A DNA stretch of 64,000 nt. Origin: Escherichia phage vB_EcoM_OE5505. A model generated the notes under the pieces. The model had not been told where the DNA came from. It searched no databases and worked only from the letters and a program-made list of their open reading frames with translations. The position numbers were made by a program, and so were the translations under genes. The stretch lies in sequence record NC_054926.1; one strand, given 5' to 3'. Shown here in pieces: positions 31,528-41,628 of this stretch. Each line of letters opens with the position of its first letter. The stretch's first letter is position 1.

Positions 31528-32001
31528 TTATTTGAACGATTTAACGTACTGAATAGAACCTTTACTATTTACAAAGGCAATTTTACCATTTTTATTATAC
31601 ATTGTAGCAGTACGTTGATAGCCATAAGTTTGTTTACCAGATTGATAACCAACTAATGCAAAATTATCTTCACCCATTTTATTCTGTTTAGCGCGAATGC
31701 GTTCATGACCATGTGCCATAAGAACCTTAGCATCACCAGTTGCAATGGATCGACGAGTTTTTTCATCTTCAACTGTATTAACAAAGTCGTCAAATGAATC
31801 AAATTTAGCATGAGATTTATTATACAGTTTTCCATCTACTGCATAATTATATCCCTGTACATCCATCTCAACTTCTGTACCATCATCCAATACAGCAGTA
31901 ATTTTTTGACCTTTTTTAAATTTCAAAAGATCAGTAAAAGATTCAGCAATAATTTGAGAATTAATAGCTGCTTCAGTGATAAATTCTTGATATGTTTTCA
32001 T
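31528..32001 (-). CDS. Internal (capsid-targeted) protein, ipIII-position (157 aa)
   Basis: N-terminal capsid targeting sequence MKTYQEFITEA; located immediately upstream of e as ipIII is in T4; early promoter 32056..32085. Confidence 0.7.
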   Translation of the reverse strand: MKTYQEFITEAAINSQIIAESFTDLLKFKKGQKITAVLDDGTEVEMDVQGYNYAVDGKLYNKSHAKFDSFDDFVNTVEDEKTRRSIATGDAKVLMAHGHERIRAKQNKMGEDNFALVGYQSGKQTYGYQRTATMYNKNGKIAFVNSKGSIQYVKSFK

Positions 32002-32055
32002 ATGTTTCCTTTAAATATTTTAATTAGTAATTTGTCTCTTCAAGCAACTGTGAAT

Positions 32056-32085
32056 ATACTATCACAATTCTAGGAGAAAGTAAAC
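32056..32085 (-). promoter_or_regulatory. Early promoter upstream of internal protein gene (GTTTAC - 18 nt - TAGTAT)
   Basis: Minus-strand motif. Confidence 0.5.
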
Positions 32086-32089
32086 AACT

Positions 32090-32584
32090 TTATAGATTTT
32101 TATATGCGTCCCACGTTCCAGTTCTAAACGTAGCGATGACTCGTTTTGCGCGATTAGGTGTTTGATTATACCATCTACTTTTAGCTAAGTTAACTGCTGC
32201 TTCATCCCAGCGTTTTTGTTGAAGCATACGTAAAGAATTAGTAAATCCTGCCACACCGGTTTCTCCCATTTGGAAAACCATATTAATCAATGCACAGCGA
32301 CGAACAGCATCAAGAGAATCATAAACTGGTTTTAATTTAGCATTTCTCAAAATTCCACGAACAGCAGCATCAACATCCTGATTAAAGAGTTTTTCAGCCT
32401 CATCTTTTGTAATTACACCATTGCAATTACGCCCAATAGCTTTATCTAATTCAGATTTAGCAACACTTAATGATGGACTTTTAGTAAGCAAATGACCAAT
32501 GCCAATAGTGTAATAGCCTTCTGTATCTTTATAGATTTTAAGTCTAAGACCTTCATCTATACGTAACATTTCAAATATATTCAT
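32090..32584 (-). CDS. e: Endolysin (T4 lysozyme) e
   Basis: 164 aa; [39 protein letters not shown]...; late promoter TATAAATA upstream. Confidence 0.95.
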
Positions 32585-32610
32585 AATACCTCCTAAGTGT
32601 TTATAGAAGG

Positions 32611-32618
32611 TATTTATA
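32611..32618 (-). promoter_or_regulatory. Late promoter TATAAATA upstream of e
   Basis: Exact TATAAATA on minus strand ~27 nt upstream of lysozyme ATG. Confidence 0.65.
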
Positions 32619-32621
32619 AAA

Positions 32622-33077
32622 TTAAAAGAGGTTGTTCATTATTCGGTAAAGTGAAGGACCCATCACATATTGCCACTGAGTACGAGGAATAAGAGCAAAA
32701 GCATCCATCTCTGGAATCATGACGCCATCTTTATTTTCAAAATAAGACTCGCAATGGCAATTTCTGAACATCTCATGCTCTACTGGAATCGTATAATAAA
32801 ATAACTGTAAGTCTTTATTACTAGAATATTTAAATACACCTAAGTCTTCTAGAAGGTCTGGATTATAATCGATAAAACCAGTCTCTTCTGAGCATTCTCT
32901 TTTTGCAGCTTCCAGTGCATTCAAATCAGAACTTTCTACACGCCCCTTTGGAATATCCCAGCGATGTGCCATCATTCCAGGCTTACGAGAACCAGTAACC
33001 CGACCCATAAATAAATCTTTATCTTCTGTCATGAAGATAATACCAGCTGATAATGTTTTCATTTTAATTTCCTGCAT
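32622..33077 (-). CDS. nudE: Nudix hydrolase NudE
   Basis: 151 aa; Nudix box [24 protein letters not shown]. Confidence 0.85.
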
Positions 33078-33547
33078 TCAGTGATAAAGTTATTTAAATT
33101 TTGAGTATATTTCTTTTCATCAAAAATCTTTTGTTGTCTGCGTAGCCGCCATGGCATTTCAATGAACGTGTACCATATCCCAGATAATATTGATGCTGTA
33201 AAAATATTAACAAGTATGGTTAAAAGAATCCAATCTCCTATTCTGTCCATTGGATTTTTTATAAAAAAGTAAAATACGAATGATGACACAGGAAGACTAA
33301 TGATATACCACAGAAGAGCCTTCTTATCTGTGAACCAATCAGCATTCGTTAACTTAGCGCGACCGTTTTGAATACATACGAACTTATCATCTGTTACAGT
33401 AAATGGCTTAGCTGCTTGATATCCCATTCTAAACTCCCTAATCAACAAATTTTTCATATCTTCGGAACAACCATTCCAGTCAACTCTATCAACTGAAATG
33501 CCATCATCCCCATCATCTAAATCATACCAGCGAGTTTTTAAAATCAT
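33059..33547 (-). CDS. Membrane protein (162 aa)
   Basis: Two hydrophobic helices (LLWYIISLPVSSFVFYFFI, WILLTILVNIFTASILSGIWY). Confidence 0.5.
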   Translation of the reverse strand: MILKTRWYDLDDGDDGISVDRVDWNGCSEDMKNLLIREFRMGYQAAKPFTVTDDKFVCIQNGRAKLTNADWFTDKKALLWYIISLPVSSFVFYFFIKNPMDRIGDWILLTILVNIFTASILSGIWYTFIEMPWRLRRQQKIFDEKKYTQNLNNFITECRKLK

Positions 33548-33906
33548 TTAATTTTCCTACAATCACTCACAAACTCTTCCATTGATTCTTTTTCAATATA
33601 AGACATATAGCTATTATATTCCTTTAATTGTATTTTGTAATCCTTTTTTCTTTGCCAATTTATTTTAAAATTATCATAATGAAAATATAACATGGTACCA
33701 AAGAATGAAAATAATGAAATCGCTATAGTAAAACGAAGTTCACTCCAAACCTCTGTTATAATTACTGTGCCGTCGATATTTAAAATAAAACAGTCAATTA
33801 ACAATCCAATAAGACTACCCGCAAGAGCTGTAAATACTGATACAGCAAGAATTAATAGTGCCTCAGGAAACGAATATTTGACTTTATTTAGTTTTGGCTT
33901 TTGCAT
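33544..33906 (-). CDS. Membrane protein (120 aa)
   Basis: Two hydrophobic helices; ATGA overlap. Confidence 0.5.
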   Translation of the reverse strand: MQKPKLNKVKYSFPEALLILAVSVFTALAGSLIGLLIDCFILNIDGTVIITEVWSELRFTIAISLFSFFGTMLYFHYDNFKINWQRKKDYKIQLKEYNSYMSYIEKESMEEFVSDCRKIK

Positions 33907-40128: not shown

Positions 40129-40416
40129 TTACCATTTATAATAATACATATTTACGATGCATTCAAGACCCAAAGGATTCTTGAAAATATCATATTCAAG
40201 AGGACCTTTTTCTGTTTCAATAAAGAAATCAAAATTTACTGTATTAAATTTACGTTCTTCCTTCACTAATTTAACTTGAGAAGATGAACGGTCAATGTAA
40301 ACCTTTTCAACTTCAAAACATGTTAAAATGCCATAATCATCAATCAAAGCTTTAGCCGCGTCTTGATCATATTTATATCCATTTTCAATGGATGATACTT
40401 TCGCATAAAGAATCAT
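40129..40416 (-). CDS. Hypothetical protein (95 aa)
   Basis: ATG start. Confidence 0.45.
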   Translation of the reverse strand: MILYAKVSSIENGYKYDQDAAKALIDDYGILTCFEVEKVYIDRSSSQVKLVKEERKFNTVNFDFFIETEKGPLEYDIFKNPLGLECIVNMYYYKW

Positions 40417-40418
40417 TA

Positions 40419-40817
40419 TCAGCCTTCATCAACAATAGTGTGAGTATTAGCATTTACGATTTGCCACCAATCAAAGCGATTAGAATCCATCGGTTTGTTT
40501 TCATTTTCTTTGATAATGTCACGGAGTTCATCTTCAGAGAATGCTTTAGCAATTAAATCGGTATACCCACCACGGGGATAATAATTATCACCTGCAAACA
40601 AAAGGAAATTTACCTTCCCGGAAGCAACATATGCTTCCTTAGGATACTTGTTTCCTGCGTGGTCAACCACTTCAATATAACGGTAAGGAATATCGGTTCT
40701 TTCAACCCATTGCCATGCCGCCGCAGGGGAATCGAAAGCATCTACACCTAAACGATTATCTTCATCTTTAGACGGATTATTTTCGTAATCCGCATATACA
40801 TAATATTCAACGTTCAT
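40419..40817 (-). CDS. Hypothetical acidic protein (132 aa)
   Basis: ATG start; abuts next gene. Confidence 0.5.
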   Translation of the reverse strand: MNVEYYVYADYENNPSKDEDNRLGVDAFDSPAAAWQWVERTDIPYRYIEVVDHAGNKYPKEAYVASGKVNFLLFAGDNYYPRGGYTDLIAKAFSEDELRDIIKENENKPMDSNRFDWWQIVNANTHTIVDEG

Positions 40818-41002
40818 TATTCACCTTTAGAAATTTTATCCATAACAATAGCAATTAAACCAATTAAAAATGCTACTACAAGTGAAAACACATTTTCTGC
40901 TGTAGTCAATAATCCACATATAAATCCAACAAACATTGAAAAACTAAAAGCGGAAGCAGAAATTGCAATAGCAACATTTCGAATTAATTCACAACGTTTC
41001 AT
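40817..41002 (-). CDS. Small membrane protein (61 aa)
   Basis: Two hydrophobic segments; ATG start; early promoter 41031..41060. Confidence 0.45.
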   Translation of the reverse strand: MKRCELIRNVAIAISASAFSFSMFVGFICGLLTTAENVFSLVVAFLIGLIAIVMDKISKGE

Positions 41003-41021
41003 TTTATTCTCCTCAGTAGTA

Positions 41022-41060
41022 GATAGGGTAATAGTATCACTACCCTATCTAAAAGTAAAC
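41022..41060 (-). promoter_or_regulatory. Early promoter with -10 box enclosed by inverted repeat GATAGGGTA/TACCCTATC
   Basis: GTTTAC - 18 nt - TACTAT; 9-bp arms flank the -10 hexamer. Confidence 0.55.
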
Positions 41061-41294
41061 TTATTTTTTACGAAAAATTGATTTATTTTCTGCTGCCCAT
41101 TTTTCAATAACTGCAGCAGGACCAGTAACAACAATTTTATCACCGTAATCTTCTGCGGCGAGTTGACCGAAATTATCTAATGCATCACGAAGAACTCCAT
41201 GAGGCATTTCACCCATTTTATCTTTCTTGCCAGTGTAAATAAACTCAACTTTTACATCAGCAGTTTCAGCAATAAATTCTTGGTAAGTTTTCAT
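41061..41294 (-). CDS. Internal protein I-like (capsid-targeted), 77 aa from MKTYQEFIAE
   Basis: Canonical capsid targeting sequence MKTYQEFIAE at ATG 41294; early promoter 41329..41358. Confidence 0.7.
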   Translation of the reverse strand: MKTYQEFIAETADVKVEFIYTGKKDKMGEMPHGVLRDALDNFGQLAAEDYGDKIVVTGPAAVIEKWAAENKSIFRKK

Positions 41295-41320
41295 TTTGAT
41301 TTCCATTTGGTTTTGTTTTG

Positions 41321-41358
41321 ATAGGGTAATAGTATCACAACTAAAACCCTATGTAAAC
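41321..41358 (-). promoter_or_regulatory. Early promoter with inverted repeat ATAGGGT/ACCCTAT around -10
   Basis: Same architecture, longer loop. Confidence 0.5.
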
Positions 41359-41370
41359 AACTTTGTGAAA

Positions 41371-41628
41371 TTATTTTAAATCTTCTAATCGTTTCTTCAT
41401 CTTAGAACCATTTTTAGCAATTTCTCCTGCATCGGAGCATAATGCTAAAAGTGCTTTAACTTTAGTTTGGTCTCCTTTAAAAGATGAAGGATCGACCGCA
41501 GCAGCAAGTTCTTTAATACGAGAGAAAAGACGCTCAGCTTCAGCTAAAGCCATTCCAAGCTTTACTTCCATACCGTGGGAAGATTCAGTGATAGTAGTTT
41601 TTGTAGCAAACTCTTTGAAAGTTTTCAT
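41371..41628 (-). CDS. Internal-protein-like small protein (85 aa)
   Basis: N-terminus MKTFKEFATK resembles capsid targeting sequence; early promoter 41660..41689. Confidence 0.55.
   Translation of the reverse strand: MKTFKEFATKTTITESSHGMEVKLGMALAEAERLFSRIKELAAAVDPSSFKGDQTKVKALLALCSDAGEIAKNGSKMKKRLEDLK

Follow-up and report, generated by a model that had tools for sequence, protein, structure and literature searches.

Capsid-targeting leaders on five genes of Escherichia phage vB_EcoM_OE5505: three known internal proteins and a probable third Ip-like locus

Do the five genes of Escherichia phage vB_EcoM_OE5505 that begin with the leader of T4 internal proteins (IPs) all belong to this class, and what is the locus where two of them lie at a place without a gene in T4? 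We studied a stretch of 64,000 nucleotides from sequence record NC_054926.1, here called the window. It shares 97-99% DNA identity with other Tequatrovirus phages such as KarlGJung/Bas37 and PYps5T, and vs.6 through gene 3 are colinear with T4. All genes considered lie on the minus strand. A first-pass annotation, made from the letters of this DNA, had proposed the five genes as candidate injected anti-restriction proteins in three loci. We consider it likely that all five leaders are capsid targeting sequences (CTSs), that three of the genes encode the known internal proteins Ip4, Ip5 and Ip6, and that the other two, which we call gene A and gene B, make up a third Ip-like locus.

The leader pattern MK[TS][YF].[EQ]F was scanned across the six-frame translation of the window. 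The results showed exactly five matches, all on the minus strand, with starts at 32001, 36650, 37250, 41294 and 41628. Shuffled versions of the window (300 shuffles) gave a mean of 0.01 matches and a maximum of 1, and the analytic chance expectation was about 0.001 per roughly 300 genes. The matches fall on the same five open reading frames (ORFs) that the first-pass annotation had listed; the five-leader observation is real and not a product of chance. No sixth leader-bearing gene was found in the window, with looser patterns included. At the DNA level, the leaders of the ip genes were mutually 64-77% identical (repeat family D2).

The first 10 residues of T4 IPIII are enough for encapsidation (Mullaney and Black, 1996, as reviewed in PMC9026906). 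Mutagenesis of IPIII linked residues 4 and 7 to targeting and residues 8 and 10 to processing, and the gp21 prohead protease cleaves after L/I-x-E (PMC9026906). In the window, all five leaders have an aromatic residue (Y or F) at position 4 together with F7, and four of the five have Y4, F7, I/L8 and E10. With a slash for the predicted cut, these four are MKTYQEFITE/A (Ip4), MKTYAEFLTE/A (gene A), MKSYTQFLNE/A (gene B) and MKTYQEFIAE/T (Ip6), the last being the same CTS as that of T4 IPII and IPIII. The predicted cleavage motifs are ITE10, LTE10, LNE10 (plus LNE15) and IAE10, respectively, and ITE15 in Ip5. The first-pass annotation had named coincidental N-terminal likeness without cleavage context as a ground for dropping its proposal; this is not the case, as L/I-x-E is present in all five.

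The Ip5 leader has F4 and F7 and lacks Glu at position 10; its ITE at positions 13-15 parallels the ITE at positions 17-19 of T4 IPI. The T4 IPI propeptide is MKTFKEFTSTTTPVSTITE, followed by A, and its 19 residues explain the maturation of the 95-amino acid (aa) protein to the 76-aa IPI* (PMC3012670). Ip5, with the propeptide MKTFKEFATKTTITE followed by S, thus appears to carry an IPI-type long propeptide without Glu10, and cleavage is predicted after E15. The leader at 41371..41628 had been correctly picked out as a CTS, here of the T4 IPI type, while its longer propeptide had been overlooked and the cut context lies at residues 13-15 and not at residue 10. This corrected cleavage site, a prediction from sequence, is one modest new element. 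Judged by these residues, the five leaders are T4-type CTSs, with a predicted propeptide length of 10 to 19 residues.

Three of the five genes are intact and lie at the two classical IP loci:

31528..32001, minus strand: Ip4 (IpIV), 157 aa; Pfam DUF7412 and phrog_3155; at the T4 denV/ipII/ipIII position, between vs.8 and e
41061..41294, minus strand: Ip6 (IpVI), 77 aa; phrog_8111 'internal virion protein', E=1.2e-52
41371..41628, minus strand: Ip5 (IpV), 85 aa; phrog_3499, E=1.2e-49; adjoining 57B, at the T4 ipI position

Ip4 matched Pfam DUF7412 with E=5.7e-96 and 319.4 bits against a gathering cutoff of 27, with residues 1-157 covered, and matched phrog_3155 'internal virion protein' with E=6e-102. 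It is 100% identical to proteins of T2, RB3, RB18 and RB33, and its homologues are annotated Ip4 or ipIV in ime09, Kha5h, RB51 and PST. Ip6 was found in 244 phage records and is annotated ipVI or ip6 in GiZh, VR7 and PST; a further in-frame ATG lies upstream at 41306, without a Shine-Dalgarno sequence, and the 77-aa form is the one annotated in most records. The Ip5 sequence exactly equals the UniRef entry 'Ip5' of T6 (Q38630_BPT6), the annotated Ip5 of RB51 has a near-identical body, and PST has ipV at the same place. The gene order 57B-ipV-ipVI-trna.4 in the window is that of PST, a genome annotated by the group that first described the IP loci, and the arrangement of e and ip4 without denV is as in T2. 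We regard it as very likely that Ip4, Ip5 and Ip6 are capsid-targeted internal proteins. Ip4, Ip5 and Ip6 of T-even phages were reportedly described by Repoila et al. in 1994 (EMBO J 13:4181), and the finding on these three genes repeats what is already established for T-even phages. As a side observation, the slot after e in an IMG/VR contig resembling Yersinia phage ZN18 (L010, 6780-7061) holds a 93-aa protein with the leader MKTYSEFLSE/SILNE/A and an Ip5-like body (54% identical to Ip5), so the Ip5 family occurs at both classical loci.

An early promoter of the type found in promoter/stem-loop (PeSL) cassettes lies ahead of all three genes:

32056..32091, minus strand: PeSL-type early promoter upstream of Ip4; GTTTAC, 17 nt, TGATAGTAT
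41329..41357, minus strand: PeSL-type early promoter upstream of Ip6; TTTACA-17-TACTAT with a TG extension
41660..41688, minus strand: PeSL-type early promoter upstream of Ip5; TTTACA-17-TACTAT with a TG extension

The repeated block of about 70 nt ahead of each gene fits the PeSL consensus TTTACW-N17-TAYWAT (PMC4122927). The blocks upstream of Ip4, Ip5, Ip6 and trna.4 are alike (repeat family D3). The abstract of Repoila et al. (1994) is said to describe a '70-bp block with an early promoter', which the Ip4, Ip5 and Ip6 blocks match. Placement in a polymorphic IP locus bracketed by such early-promoter blocks of about 70 bp was found for all three, and Ip4, Ip5 and Ip6 are genes of the two classical IP loci that are shuffled via PeSL cassettes of about 70 nt.

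The remaining two leaders belong to the interval that separates e.8 from the tRNA/rnaC region, a place with no gene in T4. The division into three loci therefore holds, as two classical IP loci and this one, and the remark of the first-pass annotation that two genes sit where internal-protein genes are not known from T4 was borne out: T4 DNA passes without a break from the e.8 intergenic region to the rnaC terminator. Alignment to T4 showed an insertion of 1,215 bp (36079-37294) exactly at the rnaC terminator hairpin, likewise lacking in T2 and PST. The features of this locus are as follows:

36088..36650, minus strand: gene A (orthologue 187 aa, leader MKTYAEFLTE/A), delimited by alignment to KarlGJung
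36776..37250, minus strand: gene B, RB32ORF132c family (orthologue 157 aa, leader MKSYTQFLNE/AVLNE/A), delimited by alignment to KarlGJung
37303..37326, minus strand: intrinsic terminator hairpin AGCCCCGACCGAAAGGTTGGGGCT with T-run, corresponding to the T4 rnaC terminator; upstream boundary of the inserted module
36745..36768, minus strand: second copy of the rnaC-type terminator hairpin, between genes B and A; 40-nt repeat, 93% identical
36061..36079, minus strand: terminator-like hairpin number three, located after gene A; the 1,215-bp insertion relative to T4 has its downstream junction here
37289..37296, minus strand: TATAAATA, the T4 late promoter motif in exact form, lying 46 nt upstream of the start codon of gene B

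The third Ip-like locus would accordingly be a 1.2-kb module at the rnaC terminator, with terminator copies at its borders and a late promoter. In IMG/VR, all ten loci that we retrieved through e.8 carry a leader-bearing ORF at this place. The first gene is preceded by the hairpin, TATAAATA and a Shine-Dalgarno sequence in eight of the ten, and AATAAATA was found in the other two. A late promoter gives a timing that suits prohead assembly.

The curators of RB51 noted RB32ORF132c as 'flanked by 34 bp imperfect direct repeat'. In the window, a 40-nt direct repeat with the rnaC-type hairpin (36732-36771 and 37290-37329; 93% identical) brackets gene B, and recombination between the repeats could loop this gene out. 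The presence of gene B only in fD1 and RB51, and of both genes in KarlGJung, is consistent with repeat-mediated loop-out.

Intact homologues of gene A, with 187 or 188 aa, are P0014-P0022, and intact homologues of gene B were found in 510 phage records. Homologues with bodies of only 38-43% identity still have the leader and L-x-E. Diverged forms of the leader are MLEYSEFLKE in Yersinia phage fHe-Yen9-01 and MKFKEFLAE in Klebsiella phages. Gene B has the duplicated cleavage motif FLNE/AVLNE/A, with E15 invariant across the family. In two IMG/VR contigs (L013, L015), the same site has this leader fused to another body, of 205 aa, and the third locus has at least three body types. A hypervariable, dispensable body behind a conserved leader was found for the CTS genes, and the content of the IP loci varies among T4, T2, PST, RB51, fD1 and KarlGJung.

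The earlier statement that the bodies of the five proteins are unrelated holds at the sensitivity used, as leader-less pairwise BLASTP never gave E<0.03. Homology of the gene A and gene B families is not claimed; BLASTP aligns the leader only. Alignment of the two families with hhalign gave a probability of 15.9% with the leaders and 0.3% without them. PHROGs places both genes in phrog_2280, and the 205-aa variant shows weak pairwise similarity to both families (E=0.009 and E=0.012). Pfam gave no match for gene A (sub-threshold only), gene B or Ip6, and only sub-threshold matches for Ip5. AlphaFold2 models reached a confidence score (pLDDT) of 73 for the gene B family and 57 for gene A, the latter too poor for structure search. 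The third-locus models are all-alpha: an N-domain of helices is followed by a linker rich in Pro, Ala and Lys and by a long helical hairpin.

By the mechanism known from T4, the CTS of such proteins would bind the scaffolding core while the prohead assembles, and tens to hundreds of protein copies would be enclosed in the head. The gp21 prohead protease would cut after L/I-x-E, and the mature basic protein would stay with the DNA, be ejected along with it into the cell and could act there ahead of any phage gene expression. We think it fairly likely that the third-locus products are genuinely packaged and processed in this way, and they are candidates for injection and for an anti-defence function. 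The 98% identical gene B orthologue of Yersinia phage fD1, g140, was listed as particle-associated by LC-MS/MS in an unspecific dataset (PMC8309999 Table S3). The fD1 proteins g129 (Ip4) and g146 (IPI) were also listed as such, and the neighbours e.8 and g138 were not (PMC8309999 Table S3). We found no more specific virion proteome that covers third-locus proteins, the fD1 dataset being the only one located.

The leader could instead be an inherited or recombined N-terminal remnant on ordinary late cytoplasmic accessory proteins that have lost packaging. Spread of the leader by recombination is possible given the 64-77% identity of the leader DNA, the locus has no PeSL context, and the annotations are all 'hypothetical' among the matches listed. 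A remnant, however, fits poorly with the retention of the aromatic residue at position 4, F7, L8 and E10 in homologues only 38-43% identical, and on a different body at the same site. The duplicated motif of gene B with its invariant E15 and the detection of the fD1 orthologue in virions also argue against it, and we hold this explanation to be improbable.

Several observations weigh against taking the third locus, and with it the five genes together, as packaged proteins of counter-defence. The third-locus genes lack the PeSL early-promoter blocks of the classical IP loci, although such a block is a feature of the loci and not a requirement of the mechanism. Their proteins are annotated hypothetical throughout, among the matches listed and the protein clusters examined, and gene B was left hypothetical in the RB51 record, which was curated by T4 specialists. 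T4 Ips were described as encoded in two loci by Silas et al. (2025) (PMC12373910). The fD1 particle proteome is unspecific: rIIA, denV, lysozyme e and dNMP kinase also appear in it among the particle-associated proteins. A Foldseek search of the gene B model against PDB gave no match at E<=0.001, and nothing but self-matches and noise came back from PDB and BFVD. The first-pass annotation had asked for the bodies to be searched against T4 IPI, IPII and IPIII, and no resemblance appeared for any of the five (leader-less BLASTP, E>=0.1 against all three). Ten other ip genes gave no inhibition of five further GmrSD systems (PMC12373910). Finally, both third-locus genes are broken in this genome.

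Gene A has a -1 frameshift near 36346 (T5 instead of T6 on the plus strand), which leaves the pieces 36330..36650 (106 aa, with the leader and N-domain kept) and 36088..36333. Gene B has a +1 frameshift near 37150 (an extra A on the plus strand), which leaves 37140..37250 (36 aa) and the 144-aa ORF at 36776..37210. The DNA of both genes is otherwise 100% identical to that of intact orthologues, with zero substitutions, and the exact 106-aa (QBQ79462) and 144-aa (QBQ79463) products occur in the OE5505 record only. As read from the record, the output of the third locus would be at most a 106-aa stump of gene A and a 36-aa stump of gene B. The claim of five genes therefore stands for the three intact ones, whereas 36330..36650 and 37140..37250 are frameshift stumps. 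Programmed frameshifting or transcriptional slippage was considered and rejected, as hundreds of orthologues are in frame and the sites themselves are an A6 run and a single-base duplication.

Both frameshifts may be assembly errors in the OE5505 record, in which case the phage encodes intact proteins of 187 aa and 157 aa. This alternative bears on the state of the genes in the record only and is compatible with a third Ip-like locus. The source study sequenced by PacBio RSII or Illumina (PMC6563267). A 1,251-bp region without substitutions relative to many relatives has just two indels, and the shortened products are confined to one contig. PacBio consensus is prone to single-base indels, which also counts for an error. 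On the other side, about 63 kb compared with KarlGJung contained four uncompensated coding indels (near 7419, 18722, 36346 and 37150) versus eight intergenic ones, and genes of known function, among them 14.8 kb of baseplate and neck genes, had no coding indel; this distribution looks filtered by selection and not random. One of the two sites is an A6/T6 run, of the classical spontaneous frameshift hotspot type in T4, and independently frameshifted gene B alleles are present in SfPhi01 (111 aa), the G28 group (97 aa) and P0008 (93 aa). On this evidence we give errors at both sites slightly less than an even chance; between real frameshifts and a record error in general the odds are roughly even. 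Of the other two coding indels, a single-base insertion near 7419 splits a minus-strand ORF at 7328-7544 into ORFs of 50 aa and 46 aa, where KarlGJung has one 71-aa hypothetical protein, and a single-base deletion near 18722 alters the C-terminal end of the ORF 18676..19080.

Frameshifted copies in several independent genomes would hint at a cost of the locus, for example through a defence system that senses injected proteins. Tentatively, and with somewhat less than even confidence, we suggest that T-even phages have a third, late-driven IP locus, unannotated in more than 500 genomes, that its capsid-targeted proteins form an architectural class of their own, with bodies swapped behind the leader, and that carrying them may be costly on some hosts. 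The modest new elements are a widespread, unannotated, late-expressed third Ip-like locus and the interruption of both its genes here. As a lead, the first-pass annotation had presented three genes that have been textbook T-even biology since 1994; the third-locus pair is the part that is modestly new.

What these proteins do can be approached from T4, where every one of Ip1, Ip2 and Ip3 has its own GmrSD type IV enzyme to inhibit, without cross-protection (PMC12373910). Growth on ECOR17 depends on IPIII, which is active without its CTS when host-expressed (10.1101/2022.04.14.488369). The earlier wording, candidate injected anti-restriction proteins, fits this inhibition of GmrSD by Ip1-3, and an anti-restriction role would hold here by analogy; no target of Ip4, Ip5, Ip6 or other Ips beyond Ip1-3 was found in the literature examined. 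By the same analogy, first-response counter-defence is a candidate function of Ip4, Ip5, Ip6 and the third-locus proteins.

The Pro/Ala/Lys-rich linkers leave room for a DNA-associated role, and the third-locus proteins could be packaged but be DNA-associated or structural and not inhibitors of a specific host defence. They would then serve in charge neutralisation, in the organisation of the packaged genome or as an aid to core assembly as reported for IPIII. The mature third-locus products are basic, with an isoelectric point (pI) of about 9.5 similar to that of IPII and IPIII. The linkers are most striking in the 205-aa variant, which contains KPAKPAKAPVAKPAAQPKVAAPKPTPKP, resembling histone-H1-like tails. 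The modelled all-alpha fold with a long helical hairpin, expression that appears from the promoter to be late only, and the head-assembly aberrations of IPIII- mutants (PMC9026906) point the same way. The locus is dispensable, however, being absent from T4, T2 and PST, its body-type polymorphism fits an arms-race function, and frameshifted copies stand in several deposited genomes. We judge a DNA-associated or structural role in place of such inhibition unlikely, and retain counter-defence as a candidate function.

Injected internal proteins enter the host cytoplasm ahead of all other phage proteins. If recognised, the third Ip-like locus would provide more candidates for anti-defence screens and for host-range determinants of therapeutic T-even phages. 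It occurs in about 500 deposited genomes and is absent from the T4, T2 and PST references, and its recognition would correct 'hypothetical protein' labels. OE5505 itself has three ordinary ip genes intact, and its third-locus pair is interrupted, in reality or by sequencing error.

Other observations were made in the neighbourhood of these loci. The gene denV (endonuclease V, ultraviolet (UV) repair) was not found in the 64-kb window by tblastn over its whole length, and by analogy OE5505 may be UV-sensitive like T2. The vs.8-e interval (31423-32089) holds only Ip4, as in T2. Elsewhere, this interval has denV without an ip gene in the closest relatives, KarlGJung and PYps5T, both in RB51 and fD1, and IpIV plus IpIII in PST; this differing content marks it as a swap site.

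The stable RNA homologues rnaC and rnaD lie at 37294-37634 and 37634-37984 on the minus strand and are 91% identical to those of T4. The homologues at 37294-37634 were placed by T4 alignment, and a search of 35500-41700 with Rfam returned tRNAs only, with no family for rnaC or rnaD. Between rnaC/rnaD and tRNA-Arg lies a 116-aa ORF of the RB51ncORF141c type without a Pfam match; T4 has no such ORF. The tRNAs of the window are Arg, His, Asn, Tyr, Met(CAU), Ser, Pro, Gly and Leu, with neither Thr nor Gln. Inside the cluster, a 161-aa minus-strand ORF (38532-39017) without a Pfam match stands where KarlGJung has tRNA-Thr. It may be a mobile endonuclease-type insertion, and PYps5T has a hypothetical coding sequence of 483 bp, close to it in size, at the matching position of its tRNA cluster. 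Directly after tRNA-Leu, at the place of tRNA-Gln in T4, a 210-aa minus-strand ORF (39410-40042) gave a sub-threshold HNH match (E=0.005) and is annotated in KarlGJung as a putative homing endonuclease. Farther away, vs.6 (30139-30501, minus strand) encodes, as in T4, a GrcA/YfiD-type protein that consists of a stand-alone glycyl-radical domain (Pfam Gly_radical, E=2.5e-18).

Compared with known systems, three of the five genes are the Ip4, Ip5 and Ip6 proteins of T2, T6, PST and the RB phages at 96-100% identity; there is no substantive difference, and OE5505 is a new isolate with known alleles. With T4 IPI, IPII and IPIII, the genes share the N-terminal CTS (identical MKTYQEFIAE in Ip6, IPI-type MKTFKEF...ITE in Ip5) and the L/I-x-E context for gp21. 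The proteins are likewise small, mostly basic and non-essential, and their genes use the same pair of map positions, one beside e and one beside 57B. They differ from the T4 proteins in that the mature parts have no detectable similarity and each of Ip1-3 has a defined GmrSD target (PMC12373910). As in the PeSL shuffling cassettes of T4-like phages (PMC2839356, PMC4122927), TTTACA-N17-TACTAT repeats of about 70 nt flank Ip4, Ip5 and Ip6, and the gene modules of the third locus are also bracketed by repeated regulatory hairpins. Unlike the PeSL cassettes, which combine an early promoter with a stem-loop, those of the third locus combine a terminator hairpin with the late promoter TATAAATA. In the giant phages phiKZ, 201phi2-1 and SPN3US, head-internal ejection or inner-body proteins that are delivered to the host are also cut after Glu, by a prohead protease related to gp21 (PMC9026906, PMC5694885), but they have other propeptides with an S/A-x-E motif, are much larger and show no sequence relationship to the proteins described here.

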